Positions 29,650 to 49,955 of a stretch of DNA of 64,000 nucleotides are shown one piece after another. A program made the translations under genes and the position numbers. The DNA is from Candidatus Enterousia intestinigallinarum (GTDB taxonomy: Bacteria > Pseudomonadota > Alphaproteobacteria > Rs-D84), in contig DVJI01000009.1 of the NCBI GenBank assembly GCA_018716885.1, positions 7,448 through 71,447 of the forward strand. Reading direction: 5' to 3'. The notes beneath the pieces are model-generated. The model saw only the letters and a program-made list of their open reading frames with translations. It searched no databases and was not told where the DNA came from. Numbering within the stretch: position 1 is the first letter of the stretch; each line of letters starts with the position of its first letter.

Positions 29650-29805
29650 TTGTCAGAGATGACATAAAATATCGCCTCCACAATTTAGGTTGGAGGGTTG
29701 TGAATATCACGAATAAACAACACTATTATTACAATAGCTACTAACCTCCAACCACCTGAAATATTTTGGTGGTTTTTTCATTCGCAATGAAAAAGGAGGT
29801 TTAGA
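29650..29805 (+). promoter_or_regulatory. conserved structured 5' leader with an intrinsic terminator (candidate attenuator/riboswitch-like element), copy 1
   Basis: hairpin cctcca...ggttggagg (29685-29706), distal complement cctccaacc (29755-29763), then terminator aaccacc-N11-ggtggtt-tttt (29760-29788) about 20 nt before the RBS aaggagg; the same architecture precedes the paralog at 38675-38880 (minus strand). Confidence 0.45.
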
Positions 29806-30228
29806 ATGAAAAAACATTTAATCATCGCTGGCATAATTTGTGCGGCATCAATCCCACCAGCGTATGCAGTAACAAAATGCGTAAAACTAACGTCGTCAAC
29901 AACGTGTACAAGTTCCTCTGGCGCGACCGGTCAGTCAAATTGGTCTGCAACCTGTGGCGGTATAGAAATTCAGGGTGTTGCATTTTGTGGCTCTCAAGAT
30001 GGTTATTCATTTGGCGCAACATCCGAAACTGTCACGACCAGTTCAACCAGTGACGATAACAAATATTGTTGGTGCAAAATGGTTTCGCCTGCGGTGTCGC
30101 GCTGGGTTTTCTTCAACGCGCGCACGTCGGCCGGTATTTGCCTTAACTCTTGCGCGAACGGCTGTGCGTTCATCGCCCAGGTCGATGCGTCTTTCCGGTC
30201 GGTGCTGTTTAGTGGACTATCTGACTAA
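29806..30228 (+). CDS. small secreted Cys-rich protein A (140 aa)
   Basis: signal peptide MKKHLIIAGIICAASIPPAYA, 11 Cys, Ser/Thr-rich; about 90% nt-identical paralog at 38252-38674. Confidence 0.7.
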   Translation: MKKHLIIAGIICAASIPPAYAVTKCVKLTSSTTCTSSSGATGQSNWSATCGGIEIQGVAFCGSQDGYSFGATSETVTTSSTSDDNKYCWCKMVSPAVSRWVFFNARTSAGICLNSCANGCAFIAQVDASFRSVLFSGLSD

Positions 30229-30240
30229 ACGGGGGCGAAT

Positions 30241-30519
30241 ATGAAACGTATATTTATTTTTGTACTAGCGATTGTGCCGATTGGCGCATTTGCCGCCGCG
30301 CCGTCAACGTCGTGTCCCACGGGTTATGTTGCGGTTGTGGAATCGTATATGGAAATCGCGGACAGCACGTGTCCCGCTGGATATACATCCGCCGGTACGG
30401 CGGACAGTTGTCTGGCGTCGTCACCGGCCGGTTCGTGCATAATGTATGCGCCAACTGGTGTAACTTATACCGACGACAGCGGTTCATATGAATTTACATC
30501 TGCCTGTCCATTGGAATAA
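30241..30519 (+). CDS. small secreted Cys-rich protein B (92 aa)
   Basis: signal peptide MKRIFIFVLAIVPIGAFA; near-identical paralog at 37961-38239. Confidence 0.7.
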   Translation: MKRIFIFVLAIVPIGAFAAAPSTSCPTGYVAVVESYMEIADSTCPAGYTSAGTADSCLASSPAGSCIMYAPTGVTYTDDSGSYEFTSACPLE

Positions 30520-30520
30520 G

Positions 30521-30546
30521 CAAAACGCCCAAATGGGCGTTTTGTT
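30521..30546. terminator. bidirectional intrinsic terminator
   Basis: hairpin aacgcccaaatgggcgtt followed by a T-run. Confidence 0.6.
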
Positions 30547-31405
30547 ATCTGGTACGTTGTAATACCACAATCATTTCTGAATTGACATTTGTTTTGTCTT
30601 TGCGTATGCAGCCAATGCGAGCCCAGCGTTTGAATTTTTTTACAGCATCACGATATGCCGTAATTTTGTGCGCTATACCCCAGTTGCCGGTTTGGGCTAT
30701 TATCGTGCCACCTGGACGGACGTGGTTGCGCAACGACGCCAATGTCTGGTGTATTTGTTGCGGGGTCATATATTCAAATATATTTGACAGATTTATTGTA
30801 TCGTATTCACCGATCAGATGTGTGTGCAATGATTTTATATCCGACCATATGAATTTGAATGGTTCGTGTATTTTGTTACGCATTTGGGCATATTCGTCGT
30901 CTGTTGGTACAATATTCGCATAGTACGACGGGTTTAATCCGTTACTGAATATAGGATAAGCCGCCATTTGCTTTATAAAATATGCACTGTTTTGCGGAAT
31001 GTCATCAATCAATGTTCCGATTTGCTTTATATCCGATGCGCGATGTGCGGTATGCATATCGGACAACAGCTGTATATATTCCACACGGGATAATTTCTTT
31101 AACGCAGCGGTTTTAATGTCCATTGCCGCTTTGGCACAGAAAGACAGGTCGAATGTATCGATTTTTGTTGCGCCGCGCATAGCATAAAACATAGGATGAT
31201 CGCCAGACGCCGCAACGGTCAAAACGCGCGGCCCATCATTTTTTGTCAGTTCCGAAACCCAACGAATATCTTCGTTTGTCAGGACGTACGACGGGGAATA
31301 GTTTGAAAAGCCCAACATTTGATTATAAAATGTTGTGCCGTTCCCGCCGATAATGTATTCAGCGTGGGCATTGTCAATATTTAATCTTGGTGTTGCGTAT
31401 TTCAT
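30545..31405 (-). CDS. class I SAM-dependent methyltransferase-fold protein, DUF3419/BtaA-like
   Basis: 286 aa; RVLTVAASGDHPMFYA (SAM-binding-like GD motif) and the C-terminal GEYDTINLSNIFEYM...VRPGGTIIAQT resemble BtaA-family proteins; assigned from memory of family motifs only. Confidence 0.4.
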   Translation of the reverse strand: MKYATPRLNIDNAHAEYIIGGNGTTFYNQMLGFSNYSPSYVLTNEDIRWVSELTKNDGPRVLTVAASGDHPMFYAMRGATKIDTFDLSFCAKAAMDIKTAALKKLSRVEYIQLLSDMHTAHRASDIKQIGTLIDDIPQNSAYFIKQMAAYPIFSNGLNPSYYANIVPTDDEYAQMRNKIHEPFKFIWSDIKSLHTHLIGEYDTINLSNIFEYMTPQQIHQTLASLRNHVRPGGTIIAQTGNWGIAHKITAYRDAVKKFKRWARIGCIRKDKTNVNSEMIVVLQRTR

Positions 31406-31566
31406 TTCGCTCCCTCAGTTATTCTTTACTCAATATTATATAGTACAAAATAACCGATTGTCAATATCTGGCATTTTTTATGTTAAAAATATAATTGCGA
31501 CAGAAAAAATGCTTTCAATAAATTCATTAAATGTGATAAAATCTGATAAATAGGAAGGGCCTTTTT

Positions 31567-34557
31567 ATGAAAAAAATTGCAATTTTTTGTGCATTATTGA
31601 TGGGTTTTGTATATAACGCAGATGCGGCAACTGCACGTAATCCGCGGGGCAGCACGTCTGCAGCAACGGGTACGACGACTGCAACGCGTTCGTCTGGTGC
31701 GGCGACTGCGCGTAGTGCCACAACCGCACGCAGTGCGACCGCCACCCGCAGTGCGGCAACGCCCGCCACCACGGCACGCGCGGCGACGGCTGGTCGTACC
31801 ACTGTCAGCAGAACCCCCACCGCAACATCAACAACATCGGCCAGTACGGTCACACGCAGTGCAACCACGGCCCGTGCCGGTACAACACAAAAGGTCTTGA
31901 ATACTGGTACCAGTGTTGCCGCGGCAAATGAAAATGTTGTTGTCAGCGCGGAATGTCGCCAGAAATACTATGGTTGTATGGATTCTTTTTGTATGTTGGA
32001 TAACGACAGTGGTGGCCGCTGTATCTGCAGTGATAAAAATGCCGAATATGACGACATTTTGGCTCAAATAGAAGAATTGGATCAACAGTCGTATCAAATG
32101 GCGACGTACGGCGTTGAACGTATTGAAATGGGTGATGCGGCCGATGTTGCGATTGCAAACGCAAATGCGGTGGCACAGTCAATTATGGACGAAGCTGCCA
32201 AAGAGGAAGAAGATGATCGTCGCACGTTGGATTTGACGTCGTGGTTGTCGCCGGTTGATTTTTCTTCTGAAGACATTTTTGCCGATACCGGTATGATGGC
32301 CAGCCCGATTGAGGGCAAGGAAGGTGATGCACTGTACCAGGCATCGCATCAGATTTGTGCACAACAAATGCCAGAATGCAGCAATGAAATGAGTATGTTG
32401 CAACTGATGTATGCGCAACAAATTCGTTCTGACTGCAGCGCGTATGAAAACAGTTTGAAACAACAGAAAAATGCCAGTGCACAAAAACTGTATGCGGCGG
32501 AACAGGCACTGCGTGAAGCGGCACTGGAACAATACCAGACAGCTAATAAATATGACCTGGGGCAGTGTACCGTTGAGTTTAAGAATTGTATGATTTCAAC
32601 GGGTGGCTGTGGGGACGATTTTTCTGGCTGTGCGTCTGTTGCTGCGTTTGATTCAACAAATACACGTGGACGTGGCAGCGGTGCCGACACATATGAAATT
32701 CAGGGTAGTGCAACCAGCATAGAAATCCAAGCATCAACGTACGATATCTTGTTATCTAAAAAGCCCTTGTGCGAAGGCGTTACGAAGCAGTGTCAGTTGG
32801 TCGCTGACCAGGTCTGGGATACTTTCCTGCGTGAAGTCGCACCACAGGTCAAATCTGCAGAACTTATTGCTGAAAACAATGCAAGACAAAACTGCATCGG
32901 TAATATTTCTTCCTGTTTCCAGCAGGCCTGTCGTGATACTATTGACCCAAATGATCCGGACGGCTCTTATGATATGTGTCTGACCAGACCAGAAACTATG
33001 TTAAACCTGTGCCAGGTTCCTTTGAACGCCTGTGGGATTTCTACCGCGTCCGCAAGTGATGCAGAAGAATCTCCTATTTGGGAATTTGTCGTCGCGCGTT
33101 TGGCCTCTATGCGCGTCAATTCCTGCTCTACTCAGTTCAAAGAGTGTCTCCAATCTACAGACCGGTGTGGACCAGATTATACTCAATGTATCGGATTGGA
33201 TACGGATACCATTATGCGTATGTGCCCGTATGATACGCTGGTCGGATGTCAGCAACAGTATGGTGAAACTGAAATTATGGGCGAAGACGTTTATGATGAA
33301 TTGTATAATATCGCACAGGGTATTTTCCTGAATATCGATAATAATATGCTGACCGAATGCCAAAATGCCGCAAATGAAGCTATGATAAAGGTCTGTGGCG
33401 ATACAGAAACCTGTACTAATCTGACCACAGATGAAAATATCGGTGCTCGTTCGCTGGAATACAAGATTTGTGAATACACCAGCAGTGATAACAGTTTGGA
33501 TATTGATTATGCCAAATGTAGAACGGATGTTTCGCAAATTTTGGATACTGAATTGGGACGTGTTGAGGGCTCGACCAGCAGCGAATTAGGCCCAGTTACT
33601 CCGTTCGCCGGCGTTATTGACGGTACTATTTACTGGGAAAGCGTTGAAATTGACGAAGATGGTCGCCTGGCCAGTGTTGATGATTATCTGGAAAACATTG
33701 GTGAAACAAATATGAATGCAGCGACCAAGGATAAATTGTCGTCGGAATTGGCGGTATTACAGAAAAATATTGATACCGCAATCAATGCGATAGAGGCCGA
33801 CCCCAAGGTACAATTCTGTATGACTGGGCGCAATGTTGACGGTATTACAAACCGCAATGTCGTTGACCGCAGTTCCAGCACGACGGGACGCTTCCCGGAA
33901 CTGACTAAACAAATGCGTATGATAATTGCCAATGCCGCATTAAAAGTGGCTAAAGATAATTATTATAAAAAGTATGATGAATTAAATGAAAAAATGTTAC
34001 AGGATTACGCCACAATTGGTGAACGTATGGCGGAAATTCAGGGTGAAAATGCATTGGATGCCAGACGTGAAATTGCACGTATTGCGTGTGTGAATTTTGC
34101 AGAAATGGCCAGTTTGCCAAAATCGCCGGATCCACCGAAAAACGCATTTGGTAAAATCTTGTCTGCGGTGGCCTTGGTTGGTGCAGCAGTTGCAATACCG
34201 TTTACCGGTGGTTTGTCGGCGGTTGCAATTGCGGGCATCGGTGGTGCAGTAAGCGCCGGGGTAGGCGTGGCCGCTGCAGGTGCCGCGGTGGCCGGAATCG
34301 GATTGCTGGGCAATGTTGGTTCGGGCAGTGCAAATGGTGCGGATGCATCGGCACAGCGTGAACTGATTGGTTCCAAACAGTTGAATCAATGGAATTACAA
34401 AGAAACCATTACTTCAACGTTTGAATGGGATACGCTGATTTGCCACAAGTGCACGCGTACACAGCAGTGCAGCAAGACCAAGAACCCATTGTTTGGTAGC
34501 AAGTATTGCAAAACTTGGGCTGATCCGGTTGAAACCTGTACGGATACACAGTTCTAA
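31567..34557 (+). CDS. large secreted Cys-rich repeat protein (996 aa), lineage-specific family
   Basis: signal peptide MKKIAIFCALLMGFVYNADA; ATTARSAT-type low-complexity region; multiple Cys-rich modules including GGCGDDFSGCASVAAFDS and DRCGPDYTQC; C-terminal glycine-zipper hydrophobic stretch. Confidence 0.75.
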   Translation: MKKIAIFCALLMGFVYNADAATARNPRGSTSAATGTTTATRSSGAATARSATTARSATATRSAATPATTARAATAGRTTVSRTPTATSTTSASTVTRSATTARAGTTQKVLNTGTSVAAANENVVVSAECRQKYYGCMDSFCMLDNDSGGRCICSDKNAEYDDILAQIEELDQQSYQMATYGVERIEMGDAADVAIANANAVAQSIMDEAAKEEEDDRRTLDLTSWLSPVDFSSEDIFADTGMMASPIEGKEGDALYQASHQICAQQMPECSNEMSMLQLMYAQQIRSDCSAYENSLKQQKNASAQKLYAAEQALREAALEQYQTANKYDLGQCTVEFKNCMISTGGCGDDFSGCASVAAFDSTNTRGRGSGADTYEIQGSATSIEIQASTYDILLSKKPLCEGVTKQCQLVADQVWDTFLREVAPQVKSAELIAENNARQNCIGNISSCFQQACRDTIDPNDPDGSYDMCLTRPETMLNLCQVPLNACGISTASASDAEESPIWEFVVARLASMRVNSCSTQFKECLQSTDRCGPDYTQCIGLDTDTIMRMCPYDTLVGCQQQYGETEIMGEDVYDELYNIAQGIFLNIDNNMLTECQNAANEAMIKVCGDTETCTNLTTDENIGARSLEYKICEYTSSDNSLDIDYAKCRTDVSQILDTELGRVEGSTSSELGPVTPFAGVIDGTIYWESVEIDEDGRLASVDDYLENIGETNMNAATKDKLSSELAVLQKNIDTAINAIEADPKVQFCMTGRNVDGITNRNVVDRSSSTTGRFPELTKQMRMIIANAALKVAKDNYYKKYDELNEKMLQDYATIGERMAEIQGENALDARREIARIACVNFAEMASLPKSPDPPKNAFGKILSAVALVGAAVAIPFTGGLSAVAIAGIGGAVSAGVGVAAAGAAVAGIGLLGNVGSGSANGADASAQRELIGSKQLNQWNYKETITSTFEWDTLICHKCTRTQQCSKTKNPLFGSKYCKTWADPVETCTDTQF
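31650..31870. repeat. imperfect tandem low-complexity repeat (codons for A/T/R/S) inside the 996-aa gene
   Basis: reiterated gcgac/gccac...cgcagtgcg units coding for ATTARSAT-like repeats. Confidence 0.6.
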
Positions 34558-34586
34558 ACAAAAACGGGGCGTTCGCCCCGTTTTTG
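34558..34586 (+). terminator. intrinsic terminator
   Basis: hairpin aacggggcgttcgccccgtt followed by a T-run. Confidence 0.65.
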
Positions 34587-34634
34587 TTGTGTTGGTACAG
34601 AATTATAAAAATAAGATTATATCGCGAATAACAG

Positions 34635-35693
34635 TTAGTGCAGGTCGTTCAAATCGGTTATAACCGTTATACCATCGCGGGTCCATTGCGCGCGGCGTGC
34701 GTCCAGGTCAAGTATGTTCGTTTGTCCCAGGTACAATACTGGACGCACGCCGCGCGCCACGCCGGCCGCCAATACCGCGTCGGCGGGTGATGGCTTTTGT
34801 TTCCCAGATGCAAACCAGTTTGTATCGTCGGCTATCCAGAAATCGGGGTCATTATGCGCGGCAATCGCATCTTGTAATGTGAATATTATCCCGGATTCTA
34901 TTGTGTGTTCGATGCCTTTGGCAGACAAGTATTCCGCAACCGGTCTTAAATCGTCCGTTACATCGCCGGGTAATTGTGTTGGGGCGGGGGCCGGCTTGTT
35001 TTCTATTGGCGCTTGTGCGTCAGTATCAGCGTCGGTGGTGCCGGTGTCATTGTCAAAGTTCACATCGGAAAATACCGGCGCAAATGTTGGGGTACCCATA
35101 TCAAACGGATTGTCTTCGGCAACATCAAAATCTGTGGGCAAGGGCAGTTCAGTTGCGGGCTGTAGTTCCGGTTGCGGGGATGGTGTGGCTGGGTGGGATG
35201 ATGTAATATTGCTGATATCAAAGTTTGATTTTGGGGCGTGGCCACTGTGCGCGCGTGCACGAATAAATGCCGCACGCAGTTCCGTTGGAATTTCTTTTGG
35301 TGCGGGTGTTGGGGTGGTATCGACAATCGGCGCCGTGTCCGCGTTTTTGGGGGCTGTGTCCTGGGTCGGTTTGATTGTATCGTCTGGGACGGGCTGCATA
35401 AATTGTGGTAATGGTATTGTGAACAACGGCTTTTTAGTGCGTAAAATGATACTTGTTGTGGCAATGTACATCGGTATAGCCGCCAAAATCAGTATCCCGA
35501 AAACAAAACCCGGAAAACCACGCAGTTGTGCGTGCATCAAAATATGCCACTGTGCGCCGGAAAATATGTCAAAGTTGAACAGCCATTTCAAAACAGCCCA
35601 TATAATCACGCCATAACAAATCGTCCATATCAGCGCATATTTATTTTTTTGCAAAAATTCCAGGACTTTTTTCATCTTTATTATTATAGACAA
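34635..35693 (-). CDS. inner-membrane protein with a Pro/Thr-rich linker (352 aa)
   Basis: two N-terminal TM helices, PTPAP-type linker, acidic C-terminal domain; no recognisable motif. Confidence 0.55.
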   Translation of the reverse strand: MSIIIKMKKVLEFLQKNKYALIWTICYGVIIWAVLKWLFNFDIFSGAQWHILMHAQLRGFPGFVFGILILAAIPMYIATTSIILRTKKPLFTIPLPQFMQPVPDDTIKPTQDTAPKNADTAPIVDTTPTPAPKEIPTELRAAFIRARAHSGHAPKSNFDISNITSSHPATPSPQPELQPATELPLPTDFDVAEDNPFDMGTPTFAPVFSDVNFDNDTGTTDADTDAQAPIENKPAPAPTQLPGDVTDDLRPVAEYLSAKGIEHTIESGIIFTLQDAIAAHNDPDFWIADDTNWFASGKQKPSPADAVLAAGVARGVRPVLYLGQTNILDLDARRAQWTRDGITVITDLNDLH

Positions 35694-35809
35694 TTTTATT
35701 TATTTGTCAATAAACTTGTTGGGTTTGTGTTTATTTTATGTCTAAAAAGTGCTTTTTTTAGTGTTGCTTTAATGGTATAATTAAACAGATATATCAAGGG
35801 GGAGTTTTT

Positions 35810-37909
35810 ATGCAATCTTTGCTGAAGTTATTTGGTACATCTGTGGCGGGACTGGGAATCTTTGTCTTTGTTGGCAATGCGTATGCCGTTACCGCGCGCA
35901 ATACTGCGGGAAATGTTGCCCAATGGAACAGTCGGGCCGGCGTAACCACTTCTGTGTCGTCACAGCGTATGCCGACTATGCCGACATTGCCGAATTTTAC
36001 GGTTGGAAATGTGTCACCAGATTTGCCGAATAATACAACCCCCAGTAACCCAGGTGACCCGGATAATCCTGATAATCCTGATAATCCCGACCCGGAACCA
36101 GAGCCGGAATGTCCGGACGGTGGGGTCAAGGATTCTGAATACACAGTTGACAGCTGTATGAACGACGTGCTGATGTGTATAAACACCGGGGCGTTGCCGG
36201 GTGGATTGAACGATTTGTTTAATGAAGATTTGCGCAATTCCATTGTGAACGGTATGAATCTGTGTGCCACCCAGGTTGAATACTGTATCGCAAATGTTCG
36301 TAAAAACTGTTCGTATGTTTATCGGTCGGCCGCAGATGTGTGGATTGACTTTAATGCGCGCAAGGTTCAGCCCGCTTACTATAACTTTGTTTTACGCAAG
36401 ACGGGATTGACGCCGAACCAGGCGGAAAATACGTGTCTGTTGCTGGACGTGAATACATATGGTTCTTCGTTTAATGCGGTTGCTAATTCGGGCAGCGTTA
36501 CATCAGAATATAACATCGGTGTCGGTGCTTATAACAGCCAGAACGGAAATATGCTGATTAAAAATAATCCCCAGGGGGCTGAATTGAACTATGGCAATCC
36601 CGGGGTTGATGGTCAGCGTGGTCATTATGCGCGTTGGGATCCAACGACGGCGGAATGCTGGCTGCGTGTTGCGGCGTATAATAAGGATACCCAAATTAAA
36701 AACAGTTGGTTGTTTGGTGCCGCCGGAAACGACCAGCCGGCCGAAGTATGGCGCCAGGCGGGTGAAACATTTACGTGCAACCGTGATTTGTTTGGCTTTT
36801 CATTGATGAACCAGACAAATACTGCGGCGGTTGTTGGTGTCGGTGGCGGCGCGGTTGTTGGTGCCGGGGTTGGTGCGATTGCTGGACACGGCGCACGTGC
36901 CTTTGACTGCAGCAGGGCCAGCCATCGTGAAATGCTGACCGAAGAATTGCGGGCAGACGCCAGTTTTGGTTCAATCAGTGAATATCTGGAAGACCCGATT
37001 TTGGCAACGGTTGATGAAATAACACGCGACCAATGTGAACAGATTGTGTTGCTGTATGACAAGTTTGTTCAGGTAAAAGAAGCACTGAAAAAATGCAATA
37101 CGATTGAAGTCACATCGTCTGAAACAACGATTTATTCCGATGTTGCAGTACAATGTAACAATTATATAAATATTGAAGATTGCTTTTCTAATGTTGCTAT
37201 GCTGAATCCTTGCAAAGGACAGGGATTTACCACGGCACAACAGTGCGCGAACTTCTTAGCCCAGCAAAATGCGGATGCGGCCGCTGCGTTGGTGGACAAT
37301 GATCCGGCTGCGTCGGAAAATGAGTTCTGTTCGTTCCAACCGTTGAATCTGGCGCGCGCCAGTGGTACCGGCATATACTGTAACGCCGGCGGGGCGGGAT
37401 GTCAAAATGCGGTTCAAATATCGGTGGATGTAGAACGTCTGGACGATATATTCACATCTGAAATCAAGGATCTGTTACAAAATGGCGAAGAATCCAATAT
37501 GGGCAAGTCAATCGGTATTGGCATTGGTGTCGGCGCAGGTGCCGGTGGGTTGGCAACGGCGATTACCGCGTTCGTTGAACGCAGTAACATCAGTTGTCAC
37601 GTTGGTGACGGACTGGCGCAGGTCGGATATGGCAAATCATATTCGATTGGGTCGCTGAAAGATTTCTATGTCAAATGGAACCTGAATCTGCCAGACACAA
37701 TTACCCCAACGGGAACGGCGGTGGATTGTGATTCTTGGAAACGTGCGTGCGGTACAATTACTAACCTGGAACAGTGTGCGTCGGCTCAGTTAAATTATAA
37801 ACCGGCCGATGCGGCGACAACAACGTTGGTACCGACGGCGTGCACAGTATCGGGCAGCGTGTGCATAGAAAATTATCCGGTTGCCAAATCGTACGGTGCG
37901 TGTGAATAA
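35810..37909 (+). CDS. large secreted Cys-rich protein (699 aa), same family
   Basis: signal peptide ...FVFVGNAYA followed by VTARN (compare ATARN in the 996-aa protein); PDNPDNPDNPDPEPEPE repeat; 24 Cys; glycine-zipper segments AVVGVGGGAVVGAGVGAIAG and IGIGIGVGAGAGG. Confidence 0.75.
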   Translation: MQSLLKLFGTSVAGLGIFVFVGNAYAVTARNTAGNVAQWNSRAGVTTSVSSQRMPTMPTLPNFTVGNVSPDLPNNTTPSNPGDPDNPDNPDNPDPEPEPECPDGGVKDSEYTVDSCMNDVLMCINTGALPGGLNDLFNEDLRNSIVNGMNLCATQVEYCIANVRKNCSYVYRSAADVWIDFNARKVQPAYYNFVLRKTGLTPNQAENTCLLLDVNTYGSSFNAVANSGSVTSEYNIGVGAYNSQNGNMLIKNNPQGAELNYGNPGVDGQRGHYARWDPTTAECWLRVAAYNKDTQIKNSWLFGAAGNDQPAEVWRQAGETFTCNRDLFGFSLMNQTNTAAVVGVGGGAVVGAGVGAIAGHGARAFDCSRASHREMLTEELRADASFGSISEYLEDPILATVDEITRDQCEQIVLLYDKFVQVKEALKKCNTIEVTSSETTIYSDVAVQCNNYINIEDCFSNVAMLNPCKGQGFTTAQQCANFLAQQNADAAAALVDNDPAASENEFCSFQPLNLARASGTGIYCNAGGAGCQNAVQISVDVERLDDIFTSEIKDLLQNGEESNMGKSIGIGIGVGAGAGGLATAITAFVERSNISCHVGDGLAQVGYGKSYSIGSLKDFYVKWNLNLPDTITPTGTAVDCDSWKRACGTITNLEQCASAQLNYKPADAATTTLVPTACTVSGSVCIENYPVAKSYGACE
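36061..36087. repeat. 9-bp tandem repeat x3 (ggataatcc[t/c]) encoding DNPDNPDNP
   Basis: direct observation; in-frame. Confidence 0.8.
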
Positions 37910-37926
37910 GTTTTACCCAAGGTGTC

Positions 37927-37955
37927 AAAACCGCCCGCAAGGGCGGTTTTTTATT
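37927..37955. terminator. bidirectional intrinsic terminator
   Basis: hairpin aaccgccc-gcaa-gggcggtt followed by a T-run. Confidence 0.65.
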
Positions 37956-37960
37956 TTATA

Positions 37961-38239
37961 TTATTCCAATGGACAGGCAGATGTAAATTCATATGAACCG
38001 CTGCTGTCGGTATAAGTTACACCTGTTGGCGCATACATAATACACGACCCGGTCGGTGACGACGCCAGACAACTGTCCGCCGTACCAGCAGATGTATATC
38101 CACTGGGACACGTGCTGTCCGCTATTTCCATATATTCTTCCACCACGGTAACATATCCAGCGGGACACGACGTGGACGGTGCGGCGGCAAATGCGCCAAT
38201 CGGCGCAATCGCTAGTACAAAAATAAATATACGTTTCAT
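37961..38239 (-). CDS. small secreted Cys-rich protein B' (92 aa)
   Basis: differs from the 30241-30519 product at only a few residues. Confidence 0.7.
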   Translation of the reverse strand: MKRIFIFVLAIAPIGAFAAAPSTSCPAGYVTVVEEYMEIADSTCPSGYTSAGTADSCLASSPTGSCIMYAPTGVTYTDSSGSYEFTSACPLE

Positions 38240-38251
38240 ATTCGCCCCCGT

Positions 38252-38674
38252 TTAGTCAGATAGTCCACTAAACAGCCCCGACCGGAATTTGGAGCTGCGC
38301 TGAGCGTGGAGCGCACAGTTGTTCGCGCAATTGTACGCGCAATAGCCGGCGGTCATCTCTTCGAAGTAGAACACCCACGACGAAACCGCTGGTGAAACCA
38401 TTTTGCACCAGCAATAATAGTTATCGTCACTGGTTGTACTGGTCGTGACATTTTCGGATTTGGTGCCAGCTGAACCACCATCTTGAGAGCCACAAAATGC
38501 AACGCCCTGAATTTCTATACCGCCACAGGTTGCTGACCAATTTGACTGACCGACCGCGCCAGAGAAACTTGTACACGTTGTTGATGAAGTTAGTTTTACG
38601 CATTTTGTCACCGCATACACTGGTGGGATTGATGCCGCACAAATTATGCCGGCGATGATTAAATGTTTTTTCAT
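38252..38674 (-). CDS. small secreted Cys-rich protein A' (140 aa)
   Basis: MKKHLIIAGIICAASIPPVYA...; ATG at 38674 with RBS aagggaga; the track's longer ORF (to 38716) adds an upstream in-frame MKKGDKN. Confidence 0.7.
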   Translation of the reverse strand: MKKHLIIAGIICAASIPPVYAVTKCVKLTSSTTCTSFSGAVGQSNWSATCGGIEIQGVAFCGSQDGGSAGTKSENVTTSTTSDDNYYCWCKMVSPAVSSWVFYFEEMTAGYCAYNCANNCALHAQRSSKFRSGLFSGLSD

Positions 38675-38880
38675 ATTCTTATCTCCCTTTTTCATTTTTT
38701 GATATGAAAAAACCACCAGAAATCTTCAGGTGGTTGGAGTTTAAGAACAATCAGTAGTAATTGCGTGGTTTATTCAATATATTCACCACACTCCAACCAA
38801 AATACGGTTGGATTTATTTTACGTCTTGCCGACGCTACTGACGGGTTCTTAAGCCCATCGGCGGAATACCCACCGACATT
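38675..38880 (-). promoter_or_regulatory. conserved structured 5' leader with terminator, copy 2
   Basis: the reverse complement carries ...tccaacc-gtatttt-ggttgga...ctccaacc then aaccacc-tgaagatttct-ggtggtt-tttt; the compensatory change in the first hairpin relative to copy 1 preserves pairing. Confidence 0.45.
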
Positions 38881-41679: not shown

Positions 41680-41700
41680 ACTTCCTGTTGCCCCCAAACT

Positions 41701-43542: not shown

Positions 43543-43550
43543 TTATTCCA

Positions 43551-44420
43551 CTAGTCCAACAGGTTGCACGCTGTGTCATAAAATTCGCACAGCAGGTTTG
43601 CATTTACACGTTCCGATTCGTATCCTTCGCCGCACTTGTTCGGCATATTGCGTTCGCATACCGTTTCAATGCACGCGTCGCGACCGGCGTTATTTGTGCA
43701 ATTCGCCTGTGCCGTTACCATTTTTTGTTCGCGTGCGGTTTGATATCCAGCAACTAAACTGGCAATCAGCGTGTCGGCGTTTTGAATTGCTGTATCGCGT
43801 GCAGCGGTCAGCGTCGTACGTATGTCTGCAATATAATCGCCGCAACCCGTTGCCTCTACACTGCAGGCGGAAAAGAAATTATCAAATGCGGCGTCATCTT
43901 CGCACGCACTGTAATCCGGACCGCATCGTTTTGCATCAACCATACACGCACGAATTGTAGATGTACAACTGGACGCGCTGGCTGTGTTTTTATTTGCGTC
44001 AGCAATTGTTGCGGACATTTGTGCGCTGATACCAGCCGCACGACAGGACTGTTCAATCAATTCATCATATACGTCGGATACATCGTCCGGCGTGCAACCG
44101 TCAACCTTTTTAATACATTGCGCAGTCGCCCAGACATATCGCTGACCAGGATCGGTTGGCGCATCTTCCAATTCGTCTTCACTTAAAGTATATCGGGCGG
44201 ATGCCCCCAGTGATAAACTGCGCATACCAGATGATGCCGGCGGAGTTCCCGCACTGGATGTACCGCAATACTGGCACCGCGCAGCCGGATTTGACGATAC
44301 GTTTATCGCGCATACGGAATCCAGACATCGCGTCAAATTCATTGTCGAACACGTGGCCGCCACCGCAATACCAGGGCAGGCAATCAAGCCACATATAAAA
44401 AATAGGGTACTTTTTTTCAT
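43551..44420 (-). CDS. secreted Cys-rich protein (289 aa), same family
   Basis: signal peptide MKKSTLFFICGLIACPGIAVAA; KRCGPDYSACEDDAAFDN module almost identical to the GGCGDDFSGCASVAAFDS and DRCGPDYTQC modules of the 996-aa protein; apparently first gene of a minus-strand operon with the 613-aa and OmpA-domain genes. Confidence 0.7.
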   Translation of the reverse strand: MKKSTLFFICGLIACPGIAVAATCSTMNLTRCLDSVCAINVSSNPAARCQYCGTSSAGTPPASSGMRSLSLGASARYTLSEDELEDAPTDPGQRYVWATAQCIKKVDGCTPDDVSDVYDELIEQSCRAAGISAQMSATIADANKNTASASSCTSTIRACMVDAKRCGPDYSACEDDAAFDNFFSACSVEATGCGDYIADIRTTLTAARDTAIQNADTLIASLVAGYQTAREQKMVTAQANCTNNAGRDACIETVCERNMPNKCGEGYESERVNANLLCEFYDTACNLLD

Positions 44421-44573: not shown

Positions 44574-45260
44574 ATGGCTTTGAATAAAAAAGTTTTGATT
44601 CATACTGGCGCTGGGATTGCGGCCGTAATTTTGCTGGCGTTCGGCATCACACAGTGCAGCCAAAAGCGTAGCGAACGTGAAGCCAACGATTCCGCAATGC
44701 GCAAGATTGAATCTAATAGACAAGAAATGCAGGCGGCAAATGAAACGCTGAAACGTGCGACTTGTGTGTTGGACAGTTTGCTGGATGCTAATTTGATCCA
44801 AGCCGATTCCATTATCGTTCTGAATGATTCTATTGCGGTTCTGAACGATTCGCTGGATTTGGTTCAAGGTCAACTGGATGACTGCAGAAAGGGAAAGCGT
44901 AATCCGACGCCGACACGCCCAACACCGACGCGTCCGACACCGGTAAAGCCGACTAACCCGCATAATGGAAACCGTACCAGAATTGATATGCGTGACAATT
45001 CCATCAATAACGAACAAATCGTTGTTCAAAATGATGGCGGAAATGGTAATGATACGGAAATAACCCTGGGTAATGGTACAACAAATAACGGCCAGATTGT
45101 CGTCAATAATGGTGGCACGGTTACAATCACGTCTAACCAGGCGGCAATTGATTCACTGCGCAATGCGGTTGACTCGTTGCAGATGAAAAATGGTAATTCG
45201 TTTGCTGGGTCCAGTGTTGTTGTCATTAAAAAGGTGAAAACATATACTCGTACACGCTAA
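44574..45260 (+). CDS. membrane-anchored coiled-coil protein (228 aa)
   Basis: N-terminal TM anchor, PTPTRPTPTRPTPVKP repeat, C-terminal TEITLGNGTTNNGQIVV...TITSNQAAIDSLRNAVDSLQMK. Confidence 0.55.
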   Translation: MALNKKVLIHTGAGIAAVILLAFGITQCSQKRSEREANDSAMRKIESNRQEMQAANETLKRATCVLDSLLDANLIQADSIIVLNDSIAVLNDSLDLVQGQLDDCRKGKRNPTPTRPTPTRPTPVKPTNPHNGNRTRIDMRDNSINNEQIVVQNDGGNGNDTEITLGNGTTNNGQIVVNNGGTVTITSNQAAIDSLRNAVDSLQMKNGNSFAGSSVVVIKKVKTYTRTR

Positions 45261-45414
45261 ATGATAACGCGTATGTTGACCATATAAAACAACCCCGTTC
45301 TATCGATACGGGGTGTTTTTTTTATATGCCTTTTCTACTAGACAAATAATAAAACAGTGTGTATTATGATTCTGGACAGGGGGAATGGTGTATAAAACTG
45401 TACAAGGATAAAAA

Positions 45415-45960
45415 ATGAATTGGAAAAGAATTATTGGTGCTGGTTCCGTAGTGGTGGCGGCTGTTGCGGTTGTGTTTTTTGCGAAAACTTGTTCAGACCA
45501 GCGGGTCAGTGATGCTATTCAGGAATCTTATAAAACTATTGCCGATACCAAGCAGGAATTGGTCGATGTGCGGCGTCAAAATGATTCTTTGCGTAAGATT
45601 GTGGAATATCGTGATTCTGTTGCCGCGCCGCGTGACAGTGTGCCGGTGAAGAAAACGGCGGCGCGCGACAGTGGCGTAATTGTTGTGCGGCATACGACCA
45701 CACCAACAGTGACGCGTCGTGCGGTTGCATCGACCAAGCCGGTCAGTGGAAAAACAACCGTTCGTATGCAAGAAAATGCAAAAAATAATAAAAACATTAT
45801 TGTTCCAGCAGATGCTACGCGTGGCGATGAAATAGAAATCGTTTTGGGTAACGGTGCGGTCAATGATGGAAACATAATTATTGGCGGTGACAAAATTATT
45901 GTTACCAGTCGTGATTCTTTGCGCAATGTTATCGACACGTTGCACGTAAAAACGCGATAA
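45415..45960 (+). CDS. membrane-anchored coiled-coil protein, paralog (181 aa)
   Basis: shares the TM anchor plus EIVLGNGAVNDGNIII...IIVTSRDSLRNVIDTLHVK module with 44574-45260. Confidence 0.55.
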   Translation: MNWKRIIGAGSVVVAAVAVVFFAKTCSDQRVSDAIQESYKTIADTKQELVDVRRQNDSLRKIVEYRDSVAAPRDSVPVKKTAARDSGVIVVRHTTTPTVTRRAVASTKPVSGKTTVRMQENAKNNKNIIVPADATRGDEIEIVLGNGAVNDGNIIIGGDKIIVTSRDSLRNVIDTLHVKTR

Positions 45961-46088
45961 CATAATATAATATATAAAGTATATTGCTGACCCGGACAGA
46001 TGTACTGTCCGGGCTATTTTTATGGAAAGTTTTTTCTAGACATAGAATTTGATTGTATGTTATGATGTTTTTACAGAGAGAATTTTCA

Positions 46089-49000
46089 ATGAAATACATC
46101 AGATTATTACTGTTTGCATTGTTTTTGATTCCGGCGGGTGCTGTTGCGGCGACAACCGCAAATAACAGCGAATTTATGGTTGCGGCGCAATTATTGGCCG
46201 CGGCAAAAAATGCCGATATTCAACAGGTGCAGTTGCTGATAAGCAATGGTGCAAATGTGAACTATGTTGACAGCACGGGATTGTCGTTGGTTTGTACCGC
46301 GTTGATGAACAATGACGTTCGGGCGGCGCAAATTTTACAAATGTATGGCGCGGACGCGTCACAATGTGACCGCCAGATAAAGCAATATAATTCGCGAACG
46401 CAAACGGAAAGCAGTGGGGGGCTGTTCAGCGGATTATCCTCCGCCCAGACAATATCTTTGGCGGCGGCGGGGGCCGCCGTTGTTGTAGGTGGGCTTTTTT
46501 TGTTGACTGATTGGTTGGATCCGGGAAATGAAAATGGTGGCGGGTCTTCATCTGGCAATCGGCCAAACGGTGGTGGCGATGATGACAATGGTGGCGGAAG
46601 TGCCACGGCGGGGGCCGAAATTCCTGTGGGGCCGGCGTATTTTACGTCTGACGGCGAAATCGCGTACAGCACAGCAGCGTATGAATCAAATTTGGCACAG
46701 TGGGATCCGTCGGCTGGTGGGGTGCGTGAAGCGGACTTTAATTATTTCCGCCCAACAACACAGCCGGAAAACAATTATGTTGTTGATGGTATTTTGTTGC
46801 CGTTGCAAAACTATTTGCTGATAATGCACGGATATTCTTCGTTTGCAAATGGGTATATGGGACAGACAACATTCCGTGACAATAATCATAATCCTATACG
46901 CGTATTAAATTCAACTGGTGGTGGACGCCCTGTTTTAGCATCTTTGATTACCGCAAATGGTATAAATGCGGCCGGTTCCGCGGCACGTTCGGTTGATGGT
47001 ATTGCTTGGTCGGATTCAACGGCGGTGAATTCCAATACAGACAGATTTGATAAGTATGCTAATTACAACAAACCGTCAAATGGAAATCTGGGGACGGAAA
47101 TTTCCGGATTTGACCTGTCGGGCAGTGGTACGGCAATGAATCCGTTTGCAAGTGCAACGGAAAGTGCGTTGGCAAAAATTGTCGGTGGCTGGGAAGCGGG
47201 TGGTCGTGCATACGGCGACTTGTACGGATTTGTGCCAAACGGTCAGTTGGCGATTTACAGAACCGGTGGCGGTGGAAAATGGGTTGATGTTGAAGACCCA
47301 ACCAGTGGGGAATTGATTGGTACGCTGACGGATTCTGGGGCTACGACTAAGGTTGGAACGATTGAGCCGGGTGATGTTATAACGTTGGCAAACGGTGTTA
47401 AATATACAATATCTAATGCACTGGATGATGCGGGGGTTACCAATCCAACCATAGAAATAAATGGCAAAACATATAAACTGGGCGCGGGCAGCATACTGCT
47501 AAAGGGAACCTGTACCAGCGATACACCGTCGGAATGTGAAAATGTTTCCGACATTGCGATTTATCAGGGTACTGACGGGTACTATTATGTGAACAGTACT
47601 GGTGGCGATACGGTTGATGCGGTGTATGTTATAAATGATAACAATATTTACGTGCAAAAAGAGTGGAAGGAATCCGATGTCCGAAATTTTGAAGCGATAT
47701 ATAACGCGCGTACTAATGGTTCCGCTGTTATTGCCAATGTTGCATTAAATCCCGAATCGCGCAAGGTTTCATATACCAATATTGGTGAAATAGAATCATA
47801 TTTTGCGCTGGGGGGCAGTACAGATAAAAAAACGTTATTCGCTGCGCTGATAAATAATTATTATGAAAAGGATTCGTCTGATTCCACAACCCAGGGTGGC
47901 TATGCAAATTCCATATTTAATGGATATAATTCCAGTTTGCCGATTTTGGTTATGCCGGCGGGCGAATTTGCTTGGGGGCAGGGCGATGGAAAAACAATGA
48001 ACGTGTTGGATGCAACGTTTGAAAACTATGCGCCTGCACTGTATGACAGTAATTTGGAACATATGTTTATGACCGTTGTTGCTGTTCAGCATTCCAAGGG
48101 AACGTCTGATGCAGACAGCATTGGTGATTATGGTAATGGTATAAATGATGATTTCGGGCCACTGTATCTGTCTATGTGGACGGACAATAACGGTACGCCC
48201 GATGATACCAGTGACGACACGCGTTATATGTCGCGTAAGTGTGGTATTGCGGGATTGGGATTAAATGGCGTCGATCCGTGGTGTTTTTCCGCCGCCGGAC
48301 CGACCGCGGAAATGGCAACAGCGTCCGCTGCGGGGGCGGTGGCTGCGTTAAAGGGGGCGTTCCCTTATATGACAAACGGTGATATTTTCACTTTGATGGC
48401 GTTGACCGCAGACGGGCCATATTTGGGAACTGATAATGCCGGTAATGCATTTACGGTTGATTCGTTGGTGTCATATCTGAAAACGATGTATTCTTTGCCG
48501 CCGGATTATCACGCGTCTGAATTGACCGGCCAGGATTATTTGGATGCCTTTGCCGAAGTTTACGGTTACGGTATGATAAATCTGGAACGTGCAATGACGC
48601 CCGGTAACAAGATTTATTATTATGACGGAAACAGTATTGTGTCTGGTAATGGAAATGCGTATTGGCGCGCGGCGTCTAACACCGTTTTTCGTGCGTCGTC
48701 CGCGTTCAGCCCCAGTACCGCGAAAATTAGCGCGCCGTTCTTTGACATATTGGAAAGTGTTGATGGCAAAATGACCCTGCCGCGTGTTTGGAAAAATGAA
48801 TTTGCGTTGGGTGTTACCGACAAGCGCGGGTTGTATATGGGTGATGTATTGGGCGAATTCAAAACTCGTAATGACGCCCCGCAACGCGTGCAATTTGGAA
48901 ACTTTGGTTTTTCAATGACAACATCGGAAAAGCCGTATGCTGATAACTTGAACGGGTTGGATAATATGCGTTTGGATTATACGTCCGGTAATTGGAATTT

Positions 49001-49835
49001 TGCAGCCGGATATCAGCGGCACTTTACCGATGGGGCGTCGCGCTTTGATGGTATGTCCAATCCGATTTTGGGACTGACGTCAAATGCGATGACAACAGAT
49101 ATTGCGTATAATATGGGACGCTGGACATTTGGGGCACGTGCGTTTTCGGGGGCAATTACTGATGAAACTATGCTGGACAGTGATCCGACATTGGCGTCAC
49201 AATATTTGCCTGCGCGTCTGGGGCTGATGCAGGGTGCACAATCAGACATCTCGTGGCAGGGTGAACGTTTCGGATTTACCACGTCAGTTGGTGCCGCACA
49301 CGAAAATAATACGTTACTGGGGGCGGTATCAGGTGGATTGTTGGATATGGGTAACGGCGACACTATATATGTTGATTCGGAATTTCGGTACAGCCCGGCG
49401 GAAGACGTTACGCTGACTATGCGGTCGACATTTGCACGTACCACCGCCGACGCCACAGGACAATTTATCCTGGGGATGAGTGATATAGATTCCAATGCGT
49501 TTGCATTTGGTGTTGATGCCGGCAATTTCAGTTTCAGCGTATCGCAACCGTTGACGGTCAGCCGTGGGTATATGCAATTCCCATATGCCGAATACGAATT
49601 GGTTGATTTGGGTGACGGAAAATATGATTTAGATATAACTGATATGCATATTGAAAATGTCAATTTAAGTCCTGATAAGCGCGAAGTACGATTTGCGGGT
49701 GCATATCGTCATAACTTTGGGGAATTTACAGACGGGGCAATAGGGTTTATATATCGTGTGAATCCGAATAATACCGATGAGTTTGGAAACGAGTCCATAT
49801 TTATGATGAAAATGACACATCGACTTGGCATTTAA
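46089..49835 (+). CDS. giant surface protein: signal peptide, ankyrin-like repeat, TM/Gly-rich linker, large passenger region, autotransporter-like C-terminal beta domain (1248 aa)
   Basis: MKYIRLLLFALFLIPAGAVAA; ankyrin-like LLISNGANVNYVDSTGLSLVCTALMNNDVRAAQILQMYGADA; C-terminal 300 aa with alternating hydrophobic beta-strand pattern; a weak subtilase-like stretch GPTAEMATASAAGAVAAL is inconclusive. Confidence 0.6.
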   Translation: MKYIRLLLFALFLIPAGAVAATTANNSEFMVAAQLLAAAKNADIQQVQLLISNGANVNYVDSTGLSLVCTALMNNDVRAAQILQMYGADASQCDRQIKQYNSRTQTESSGGLFSGLSSAQTISLAAAGAAVVVGGLFLLTDWLDPGNENGGGSSSGNRPNGGGDDDNGGGSATAGAEIPVGPAYFTSDGEIAYSTAAYESNLAQWDPSAGGVREADFNYFRPTTQPENNYVVDGILLPLQNYLLIMHGYSSFANGYMGQTTFRDNNHNPIRVLNSTGGGRPVLASLITANGINAAGSAARSVDGIAWSDSTAVNSNTDRFDKYANYNKPSNGNLGTEISGFDLSGSGTAMNPFASATESALAKIVGGWEAGGRAYGDLYGFVPNGQLAIYRTGGGGKWVDVEDPTSGELIGTLTDSGATTKVGTIEPGDVITLANGVKYTISNALDDAGVTNPTIEINGKTYKLGAGSILLKGTCTSDTPSECENVSDIAIYQGTDGYYYVNSTGGDTVDAVYVINDNNIYVQKEWKESDVRNFEAIYNARTNGSAVIANVALNPESRKVSYTNIGEIESYFALGGSTDKKTLFAALINNYYEKDSSDSTTQGGYANSIFNGYNSSLPILVMPAGEFAWGQGDGKTMNVLDATFENYAPALYDSNLEHMFMTVVAVQHSKGTSDADSIGDYGNGINDDFGPLYLSMWTDNNGTPDDTSDDTRYMSRKCGIAGLGLNGVDPWCFSAAGPTAEMATASAAGAVAALKGAFPYMTNGDIFTLMALTADGPYLGTDNAGNAFTVDSLVSYLKTMYSLPPDYHASELTGQDYLDAFAEVYGYGMINLERAMTPGNKIYYYDGNSIVSGNGNAYWRAASNTVFRASSAFSPSTAKISAPFFDILESVDGKMTLPRVWKNEFALGVTDKRGLYMGDVLGEFKTRNDAPQRVQFGNFGFSMTTSEKPYADNLNGLDNMRLDYTSGNWNFAAGYQRHFTDGASRFDGMSNPILGLTSNAMTTDIAYNMGRWTFGARAFSGAITDETMLDSDPTLASQYLPARLGLMQGAQSDISWQGERFGFTTSVGAAHENNTLLGAVSGGLLDMGNGDTIYVDSEFRYSPAEDVTLTMRSTFARTTADATGQFILGMSDIDSNAFAFGVDAGNFSFSVSQPLTVSRGYMQFPYAEYELVDLGDGKYDLDITDMHIENVNLSPDKREVRFAGAYRHNFGEFTDGAIGFIYRVNPNNTDEFGNESIFMMKMTHRLGI

Positions 49836-49852
49836 CAGATATTCGTCCGGCA

Positions 49853-49881
49853 TCCCCGCGGATTTTTCCGCGGGGTTTTTA
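49853..49881 (+). terminator. intrinsic terminator
   Basis: hairpin ccccgcggatttttccgcgggg followed by a T5 run. Confidence 0.65.
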
Positions 49882-49955
49882 TTCCCGTGAAATGTACTTG
49901 ATAAAAAAAATTGGTGGTGTAATATTGGTTGACAAAAACAAAAAGGGTTAAATAA

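Follow-up and report, generated by a model that had tools for sequence, protein, structure and literature searches.

Genes and features of the locus

The window analysed here is a stretch of 64,000 nucleotides of contig DVJI01000009.1 (assembly GCA_018716885.1, positions 7,448-71,447) from Candidatus Enterousia intestinigallinarum, and the locus under study is a block of about 20 kb within it that encodes mainly exported and envelope proteins. It is flanked by rplQ (28877-29422, Ribosomal_L17) on one side and grpE (50513-51106, PF01025) on the other, and these two family matches confirm the borders drawn by an earlier reading of the same DNA (the original prediction). The interval from rplQ to grpE holds 15 open reading frames (ORFs), listed here with positions in the window and, where they matter, lengths in amino acids (aa):

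29806-30228, plus strand: A140, small Cys-rich exported protein, 7.1% Cys, signal peptide
30241-30519, plus strand: B92, small Cys-rich exported protein, 5.4% Cys, signal peptide
30545-31405, minus strand: MT286, cytoplasmic protein with a SAM (S-adenosylmethionine)-methyltransferase fold (DUF3419)
31567-34557, plus strand: C996, 996 aa; signal peptide, linker, Cys-rich body, glycine-zipper region
34635-35675, minus strand: X352, 346 aa; polytopic
35810-37909, plus strand: D699, 699 aa; signal peptide, Cys-rich, two glycine zippers
37961-38239, minus strand: B92b, signal peptide; paralog of B92
38252-38674, minus strand: A140b, signal peptide; paralog of A140
39010-41679, minus strand: E895, 889 aa; signal peptide, CarboxypepD_reg, OmpA
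41701-43542, minus strand: F613, 613 aa; signal peptide, two Cys modules, glycine zipper
43551-44420, minus strand: G323, true length 289 aa; signal peptide, one Cys module
44574-45260, plus strand: H228, bitopic membrane protein with an N-terminal anchor
45415-45960, plus strand: I181, bitopic membrane protein with an N-terminal anchor
46089-49835, plus strand: J1260, 1248 aa; signal peptide, ankyrin pair
49956-50360, plus strand: K134, small, without a signal; follows J1260 in several relatives, its membership of the locus being uncertain

MT286 is transcribed divergently from C996 and has a 12/12 promoter-like site at 31464-31435; X352 likewise has a 12/12 promoter-like site at 35710-35683. 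MT286, C996, X352 and D699 are enclosed by an inverted repeat of some 780 bp, whose arms are 85-92% complementary; its left arm (29742-30519) carries A140 and B92, and its right arm (37961-38743) carries B92b and A140b. An Rfam scan over the window returned two tRNAs only, neither of them inside the locus.

Export signals, cysteine content and linkers

A signal peptide or membrane anchor stands at the N-terminus of 13 of the 15 ORFs, which agrees with the earlier claim that nearly every gene here begins with a signal peptide. Ten proteins have a signal-peptide-like segment with an AxA-type site (A140, B92, C996, D699, B92b, A140b, E895, F613, G323 and J1260), H228 and I181 have an N-terminal anchor, and X352 is polytopic. 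A hydrophobic N-terminus is missing from MT286 and K134 alone, and both look cytoplasmic. Cysteine makes up 4.6% of nine locus proteins compared to 0.48% of 18 other proteins of the window, a roughly tenfold difference. The predicted block is thus one of exported and envelope proteins and, as had been proposed, not housekeeping content.

The mature N-termini resemble each other (A/ATARN, A/VTARN, A/AVVSRG and A/AVRD, the slash marking where the mature part begins). Low-complexity linkers rich in Thr/Ser/Ala/Arg, which had been noted before, or in Pro/Asp/Asn are present and hold small tandem repeats. About 25-30 residues past the signal peptide, D699 (RMPT, 35966-35977), F613 (RMPS, 43360-43371) and distant C996-like paralogs that cannot otherwise be aligned have in common an RMP[ST] motif, which was observed 72 times compared to 2.6 expected from composition and occurred in none of 845 other ORFs. 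Our guess is that this motif may serve as a common sorting, processing or docking signal.

A twin Cx6C module in C996, F613 and G323

The original prediction had placed the large exported proteins in one paralogous Cys-rich family. The four motifs that it quoted are all present in the proteins for which they were given, and a common module was found in the 996-, 613- and 289-aa proteins; the 699- and 889-aa proteins carry other Cys-rich regions. The module reads C-x6-C-x4-6-C-G-x-D-[FY]-x2-C, spans 20-22 residues and contains four Cys. A six-frame translation of the window contains five copies (hidden Markov model, HMM):

32566-32631, plus strand: Cys module copy 1 of C996, aa 334-355, CTVEFKNCMISTGGCGDDFSGC; HMM matches from G323 (2.9e-6) and from C996 module 2 (2.2e-5)
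33124-33189, plus strand: Cys module copy 2 of C996, aa 520-541, CSTQFKECLQSTDRCGPDYTQC; HMM matches from G323 (2.7e-5) and F613 (1.6e-5); hhalign 67-75%
43027-43086 (strong) and 42808-42867 (weak), minus strand: the Cys modules of F613; G323 HMM 6.7e-7
43902-43967, minus strand: the single Cys module of G323

The module was present in 171 of the 5071 ORFs of the fetched loci, which include six same-strain contigs, and all 171 are relatives of C996, F613 or G323. A module HMM built from any one of these three families matched the other two at independent E-values of 1e-4 to 1e-7, but no value against D699 or E895 was better than 4, and the best against any other ORF was 0.5 or worse. Profile comparison with hhalign gave probabilities of 61-93% among the three families (92.8% for F613 and G323). 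Between D699 and F613 it found only signal-peptide/linker (84.5%) and glycine-zipper (44%) matches, and for E895 the best result was a weak 17% match to F613, the rest being signal-peptide matches. BLASTP inside the locus linked C996, F613 and G323 weakly (E 6e-4 to 1e-5) and recovered the paralog pairs A140/A140b (79% identity), B92/B92b (92%) and H228/I181 (E 1e-14). The all-vs-all alignment proposed with the original prediction therefore linked C996, F613 and G323 and left D699 and E895 unlinked. A single family taking in D699 and E895 is ruled out by hhalign and by the cross-family HMMs; a different small Cys repeat, of the CxxGY type, occurs in E895 and in the C-terminus of F613.

Based on the pattern and on the significant cross-family profile tests, we propose the twin Cx6C module of C996, F613 and G323 as a new module family. 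Judged by sequence comparison, the locus proteins fall into at least five unrelated groups: C996/F613/G323; D699; E895; A140/A140b; B92/B92b; and H228/I181. No match in Pfam, NCBIfam or the Protein Data Bank (PDB) was obtained for C996, D699, F613, G323, X352, H228, I181, A140 or B92; the PDB sequence and profile queries were C996, G323, D699, X352, J1260 and MT286, and they returned ankyrin matches only. Comparison by fold likewise gave no PDB match for the core proteins. The Pfam/NCBIfam scan also took in 24 D699, 24 X352 and eight J1260 orthologs and nine distant C996-family members, and across locus proteins and orthologs it yielded only OmpA, CarboxypepD_reg, Ank and DUF3419. The Cys-module proteins that had not been recognised at first reading are indeed without a relative in these databases. 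These families can be called new, since neither curated families nor solved structures offer a match; their general kind is familiar, namely exported envelope proteins that are lineage-specific, rich in Cys and accompanied by an OmpA anchor, in a host-associated bacterium of reduced genome.

The CHCH twin Cx9C and small-Tim twin Cx3C motifs are helical motifs of the mitochondrial intermembrane space. Like these, the module has two Cx6C pairs (C-x6-C ... C-x6-C) in a helical context, but there is no homology and the module is bacterial and extracytoplasmic. The heptad-like Cx6C spacing would put paired Cys on one face of a helix, which suggests disulfide stapling.

Architecture of the Cys-rich proteins and their glycine zippers

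C996 starts with a signal peptide and a Thr/Ala/Arg/Ser linker (about 90 aa), continues with a Cys-rich helical/coiled-coil body and a hydrophobic glycine-zipper region (about 55 aa), and closes with a small C-terminal beta domain that is Cys-rich and has Phe as its last residue. Its 39 Cys are 97% conserved (61 sequences). F613 has a signal peptide, a Thr/Ser/Glu linker with the RMPS motif, the two Cys modules, one glycine zipper and a variable C-terminus with Cys repeats and a Gly-rich tail. G323 has 20 invariant Cys and is all-helical; its structure model is confident across the C-terminal half and puts the second Cx6C mostly in a loop and a short helix. In D699, the signal peptide is followed by a linker containing PDN repeats and an RMPTMP motif and then by a Cys-rich domain that is conserved (aa 101-330). 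Two glycine zippers come next, separated by a variable Cys-containing stretch; a Cys-rich C-terminal domain lies beyond the second zipper. The zippers of these proteins are located as follows:

34147-34311, plus strand: hydrophobic Gly/Ala zipper of C996, aa 861-915, hydropathy 1.5-1.9, long enough for a helical hairpin
36815-36892 (aa 336-361) and 37505-37579 (aa 566-590), plus strand: glycine zippers of D699
42343-42411, minus strand: glycine zipper of F613

C996 (about 55 residues), F613 and J1260 each have a hydrophobic Gly/Ala-zipper stretch, and D699 and E895 have two (of those in E895, one came from the hydropathy scan and the other was read off the sequence), so that one or two such stretches per protein, as had been predicted, were recovered. 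The GxxxG/AxxxG pattern itself is present, but no protein of the window matches the Pfam glycine-zipper families (PF13488 and relatives), and among 24 D699 orthologs one matches such a model (E 0.053). In D699 and F613 the zippers rank with the best conserved parts of the protein (0.75-0.80 compared to means of 0.60 and 0.44); those of D699 score 0.76-0.80 against its mean of 0.60, and its Cys conservation is 94%. The zipper region of C996 has low sequence conservation (0.34), yet it is present in all relatives aligned. The high conservation in D699 and F613 suggests specific helix packing or oligomerisation over passive anchoring.

This conservation may also indicate membrane-inserting effectors, that is, zipper hairpins carried on helical bodies that would form pores or a translocon in the membrane of a partner or competitor and so give access to the contents of that cell, in the manner of alpha-pore-forming toxins, of hairpins of the colicin type or of the surface-bound bacteriocins CdzC/CdzD. 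The predicted long helices of C996, followed by its hydrophobic region of about 55 residues, are consistent with such a role, and the organism depends on external metabolites. Foldseek with the C996 model gave colicin Ia (E 0.04) and a component of a tripartite alpha-pore-forming toxin (E 2.8) as its least bad matches; neither is significant, and the model is of low confidence. Cdz proteins are small, have dedicated type I export and an immunity gene, and are not known to contain Cys modules. CdzC/CdzD of Caulobacter are likewise alphaproteobacterial; they are cell-surface-associated, depend on their zippers for activity and kill by contact (PMC5380434). From these small proteins with type I secretion the locus proteins differ in their large size, their Sec dependence and their richness in Cys. 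Between 29.6 and 50.4 kb we found no Cdz-type ATP-binding cassette transporter, membrane fusion protein or small immunity ORF, the locus proteins in question being of 289-996 aa with Sec signals; neither an ATPase nor an immunity gene nor any component of type I, III or VI secretion is present in the locus. The OmpA peptidoglycan anchor of E895 further argues for the producer's own envelope, and we regard membrane-inserting effectors as quite improbable.

E895, X352, MT286 and the H228/I181 pair

E895 is the member with an OmpA-type peptidoglycan-binding domain, which had been predicted and scores well above the cut-off. Two of its domains match curated families:

41131-41379, minus strand: CarboxypepD_reg beta-sandwich of E895, CarbopepD_reg_2, 57.7 bits
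39073-39342, minus strand: C-terminal OmpA peptidoglycan-binding domain of E895, PF00691, 62.2 bits compared to a cut-off of 27.2, aa 786-875

The middle of the protein holds CxxGY-type Cys repeats, the two glycine zippers and further Cys repeats. Many OmpA-type NCBIfam models matched the OmpA region, all under their whole-protein cut-offs. The match to YiaD_Gzip_OmpA (NF053611; E 6.7e-21) reached 74.9 bits compared to a cut-off of 175 and covered profile positions 97-205 only, and no lipobox was found in the E895 N-terminus. E895 was for these reasons rejected as a YiaD-type lipoprotein: the match is under the cut-off and confined to the OmpA part, and the lipobox is missing. Glycine-zipper outer-membrane lipoproteins occur with or without an OmpA domain (types YiaD, SlyB/Pcp and Rickettsia 17-kDa antigen). 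E895 resembles them in pairing zippers with a C-terminal OmpA domain, but at 889 aa, without a lipobox and with Cys repeats and CarboxypepD_reg it is unlike the YiaD type.

X352 has two to three transmembrane helices at its N-terminus, then a linker rich in Pro, and at its C-terminus a conserved domain without a Pfam or PDB match. H228 and I181 are paralogs, each built of an N-terminal anchor, a coiled coil and a C-terminal part rich in beta structure, and neither has a Pfam match. MT286 matched PF11899 at 53.8 bits compared to a cut-off of 28.2, a partial match (profile positions 12-101 of 385), and gave weak Methyltransf_12/25 matches. The idea that MT286 might be related to the Rickettsia OmpB lysine methyltransferases was dropped, as the PDB search gave no supporting match.

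J1260

The giant protein of the locus had been described as autotransporter-like with an ankyrin repeat, and of these two claims the ankyrin repeat held while the autotransporter did not. The features at its N-terminal side are:

46185-46373, plus strand: J1260 ankyrin pair, Ank_4, 24.7 bits compared to 22.7
46431-46505, plus strand: hydrophobic Gly/Ala segment of J1260, preceded by an invariant GLFSGLS

The ankyrin pair (aa 40-107) also matched designed ankyrins (DARPins) of the PDB at 1.8e-19 and was found in eight of eight J1260 orthologs; the public names give no more than 'ankyrin repeat domain-containing protein'. Beyond the zipper lies a large passenger with a weak subtilase-like stretch, followed by a Gly/aromatic-rich, Cys-free C-terminus. 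The match to Peptidase_S8 (PF00082) had an E-value of 0.03 and 14 bits compared to a cut-off of 21.8 and covered the Ser region only, and the aligned Ser position reads T-[A/T/S/D]-E-M-A, so that there is no conserved Ser; the candidate His is also unconserved. J1260 as an active subtilase was rejected on these grounds, the match being sub-threshold and both residues unconserved.

No PF03797 was found in J1260 (in one scan with matches up to E 1), its orthologs or the public precomputed annotations. The density of amphipathic strands, 2.7 per 100 aa, lies between that of a control barrel (5.2) and that of a helical control (1.5). J1260 resembles type Va/subtilase autotransporters (NalP/SphB1) in its size, signal peptide, weak subtilase-like stretch and Gly/aromatic-rich Cys-free C-terminus, but differs from classical autotransporters in its N-terminal ankyrin pair and hydrophobic segment and in having no detectable PF03797. 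Without PF03797 and without similarity to the genuine beta-domain in the window, J1260 as a type Va autotransporter was rejected on the present evidence.

The classical autotransporter of the window is another protein, located 7 kb from the locus. This 1154-aa protein (56992-60456, minus strand) has a signal peptide, a genuine Autotransporter beta-domain (PF03797), a faint Chlam_PMP signal and one Cys.

A heptapeptide, (G/V)LFSGLS, recurs in J1260 (46422-46442), A140 (30205-30225) and A140b (38255-38275). It forms the extreme C-terminus of A140 and A140b, and in the J1260 orthologs it is invariant and stands just ahead of the hydrophobic segment. LFSGLS occurred in 17 of 1267 ORFs of related loci, 16 of the 17 in the J1260 and A140 families.

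Distribution and gene order

The distribution of the locus was examined in one genome per GTDB species, with the 77 best loci inspected and synteny counted over 78 loci. C996 has more than 900 homologs, and relatives of it were found in 274 species genomes; a 1.8-billion-protein library contains 900 clusters of the family at 50% identity, of which the best 150 representatives were listed. Ten distant C996 members were looked up and all were named 'hypothetical protein' or had no name; nine had no Pfam domains. Gut metagenomes contain exact copies of C996, on contigs as long as 384 kb. Among the 77 best loci, one of which is on a circular metagenome-assembled genome of 958,618 bp, the label is Candidatus Enterousia or uncultured Alphaproteobacteria (of gut or rumen) in all but two cases; these two are labelled Bacteroides fragilis and Muribaculaceae, and we take them to be mis-binned. 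No relatives of the locus were found in phage genomes, plasmids or IMG/VR viral contigs, and a mobile-element origin was rejected for this reason. The description of the locus as lineage-specific is supported by these results: apart from the two odd labels the 77 loci stay within the lineage, and none comes from a phage, plasmid or viral contig.

Among related loci, C996-X352-D699, G323-F613-(E895) and H228-J1260-K134 remain adjacent in several orders and orientations. Both rpoA and rplQ lie within the 10-kb flank in 55 of 78 loci, and directly upstream of the cluster where inspected. MT286 is upstream of C996 in 38 of 78 loci and X352 lies between C996 and D699 in 50. The A140/B92 pairs occur in this species and one relative (L083) only, and other species have tandem C996 copies (many have two) as well as three more distant C996-like subfamilies. 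Comparative data of this kind indicate that the locus belongs to the conserved core of the genus and is not a variable island, the A140/B92 pairs being species-specific. As adjacency is kept through several gene orders, we argue that the locus is a functional unit.

An alternative is that there is no system at all, and that unrelated exported orphans have piled up in a permissive spot past rplQ, with paralogs arising by recurrent duplication. This would agree with the presence of at least five unrelated protein groups, with several transcription units on both strands, with the insertion of further Cys-rich orphans nearby (between rpsK and rpoA) and with the variable extras, namely the A140/B92 pairs, the tandem C996 copies and the distant paralogs elsewhere. 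However, the same gene set stays together in several orders across many species, which would not be expected without selection for linkage. In addition, members that are otherwise unrelated have the RMP[ST] motif in common, and four different members contain glycine zippers. A genome of about 1 Mb would also be unlikely to keep 20 kb of coding sequence conserved by purifying selection if that sequence were dispensable. We consider a chance accumulation unlikely.

What surrounds or follows rplQ differs in two cases. In a more distant relative (L084/L085, 6385-19435), a tandem pair of C996-like genes (988 and 1106 aa) stands after rplQ and ahead of orphans of 857 and 910 aa, so that the position past rplQ is retained and its content expanded. 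Metagenome contig L002 (1-8019) is 99.7% identical to window positions 29584-38803 over 9220 bp, that is, over the repeat-bounded cassette from A140 to A140b. Its left flank holds smpB, a xerC-like integrase, tyrS, rpsD and LemA in place of rplQ, and on the other side the contig stops at the right-hand arm of the repeat. Such an arrangement could stem from rearrangement in a strain, from mobility of the cassette or from chimeric assembly via a third copy of the repeat.

Rate of evolution and cysteine conservation

In the same genomes, protein identity to the window is on average 94% for RpoA and 92% for SecY, compared to 57-60% for C996, D699, F613 and G323 and 42-45% for E895, X352 and J1260. 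The nonsynonymous divergence (dN) of the core locus proteins is 10-15 times that of RpoA. Where synonymous divergence (dS) is unsaturated, dN/dS is about 0.08-0.19, so that selection is purifying overall. Between species dS is saturated; on the values that could be estimated, gene-wide positive selection was rejected. The Cys positions of the five large proteins are 93-97% conserved. C996 identity is out of step with that of its neighbours, as seen in L034, L026 and L045 compared to L068 and L007: in L034, MT286 is 86%, D699 75% and C996 56% identical, and in L068, MT286 is 49% and C996 77% identical. This pattern suggests allele replacement or recombination at C996.

Cysteines that are both abundant and invariant raise the possibility of a structural scaffold, in which a disulfide-cross-linked periplasmic or outer-membrane network tied to peptidoglycan by the OmpA-domain member E895 would stabilise the envelope, with no contact to a partner. 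Its core-genome status at a fixed site beside ribosomal-protein operons, the purifying selection overall and the organism's lack of lipid synthesis (PMC12306168) all fit such a role, and chlamydiae provide a precedent of disulfide-cross-linked Cys-rich envelope proteins (PMC6752827, PMC6812762). The chlamydial OmcA/OmcB and Pmp complex resembles the Enterousia proteins in that exported Cys-rich envelope proteins, in a reduced-genome, host-dependent bacterium, are regarded as acting by disulfide bonding, and OmcB doubles as an adhesin (PMC2229832, PMC6752827); in addition, the autotransporter with the faint Chlam_PMP signal is found in the same window. There is, however, no sequence similarity between the two, the phylum is different, and the Enterousia proteins are predicted to be helical with glycine zippers, cross-linking being only assumed. 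C996, D699, F613 and G323, as well as nine distant family members, had no Pfam match to the chlamydial outer-membrane protein families (OmcA/OmcB), and there is no Pfam-level similarity to OmcA, OmcB or MOMP. The roughly tenfold faster evolution and the out-of-step C996 (56% in L034) fit exposed or interacting proteins better, and long disordered Thr/Ser/Pro-rich stalks are typical of proteins that project from the surface. A purely structural role is in our view possible but rather unlikely.

A proposed envelope or surface assembly

Bacteria of the order Rs-D84, to which the uncultured Enterousia belongs, live in the gut. Their genomes do not exceed about 1 Mb, they are without amino acid, nucleotide and lipid biosynthesis and without respiration, and they are probably partner-dependent; they are widespread in human, ruminant, bird and horse guts (PMC12306168). 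We suggest, with about even chances of being right, that the locus encodes a lineage-specific envelope or surface assembly that is anchored by its zippers and to peptidoglycan and that would act in contact with a partner cell or host surface. The Cys-rich proteins would be exported by Sec and then, we assume, stapled by disulfides, and the glycine-zipper segments would hold them at a membrane. Together with peptidoglycan-bound E895, the inner-membrane proteins X352, H228 and I181, and J1260, they would make up the assembly, by which the bacterium would touch or hold on to a partner cell or the surface of a host. The dependence on metabolites, taken with a divergence about ten times that of housekeeping proteins, makes contact with a partner or host the likeliest role.

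Several observations weigh against this proposal. As an anaerobe of the gut, Enterousia lives by fermentation and has no respiratory chain (PMC12306168), which counts against the assumed disulfide formation. The locus contains no component of a known adhesion, secretion or feeding machine and neither an ATPase nor another energy source, and its genes, which lie on both strands, are divided among several transcription units, each having promoter-like sites and terminators of its own. The idea that it forms a self-contained system was for these last reasons, the missing energising component and the several transcription units, not upheld. The OmpA domain suggests a periplasmic location for at least part of E895, and the C-terminal profile of J1260, at most a possible beta-barrel, had no significant match to the window's own PF03797 protein. 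The C996 structure model, which is mostly long helices, is a poor one, with a predicted local distance difference test score of 49.5.

The locus may even represent a new, envelope-spanning contact or feeding apparatus of Rs-D84, in which disulfide-stapled helical proteins with the twin Cx6C module would be routed by RMP[ST], form oligomers via their zippers, extend from an E895 base bound to peptidoglycan, and insert into or dock onto partner membranes to obtain metabolites that the bacterium is unable to produce. We give this elaboration little credence.

Other genes of the window

The interval between rpsK and rpoA, in the ribosomal-protein gene region, holds on the opposite strand a 209-aa Cys-rich protein (26230-26859, minus strand) and a 140-aa protein with a signal peptide (27068-27490, minus strand). 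In the relative L084, the same site (3260-4381) holds a 373-aa Ephrin_rec_like Cys-rich protein. The rpsK-rpoA interval is therefore a second insertion spot for Cys-rich orphans in this region.

Two tandem genes of the choloylglycine-hydrolase family (PF02275, CBAH) lie at 54700-55794 and 55800-56897 (minus strand); their products have signal peptides and an N-terminal A-C-T-G-I-T-L motif, and may be bile-salt hydrolases of a reduced-genome gut bacterium. At the end of the window (60891-64000), the G+C content falls from about 0.47 to 0.32-0.40 right after a tRNA gene (60891-60961). The ORFs of this part encode an AAA_21/AbiEii-type ATPase (62556-63791, 103 bits) and two orphans, and it is probably a small defence or mobile island at the tRNA.

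Implications for the Enterousia/Rs-D84 lineage

How Rs-D84/Enterousia bacteria attach to or feed from other cells is the question on which the locus bears (PMC12306168). It occupies about 2% of the genome, has been kept across hundreds of species beside ribosomal-protein operons and encodes exported or membrane proteins that lack known relatives, which makes it a candidate for the missing interaction machinery. At least three new families or modules could be added to domain databases, namely the twin Cx6C module, the two-zipper family of D699 and the family of J1260, which combines ankyrin repeats with an orphan remainder. If they are surface-exposed, the proteins would provide lineage-specific markers or antigens with which these uncultured bacteria might be tracked or enriched.

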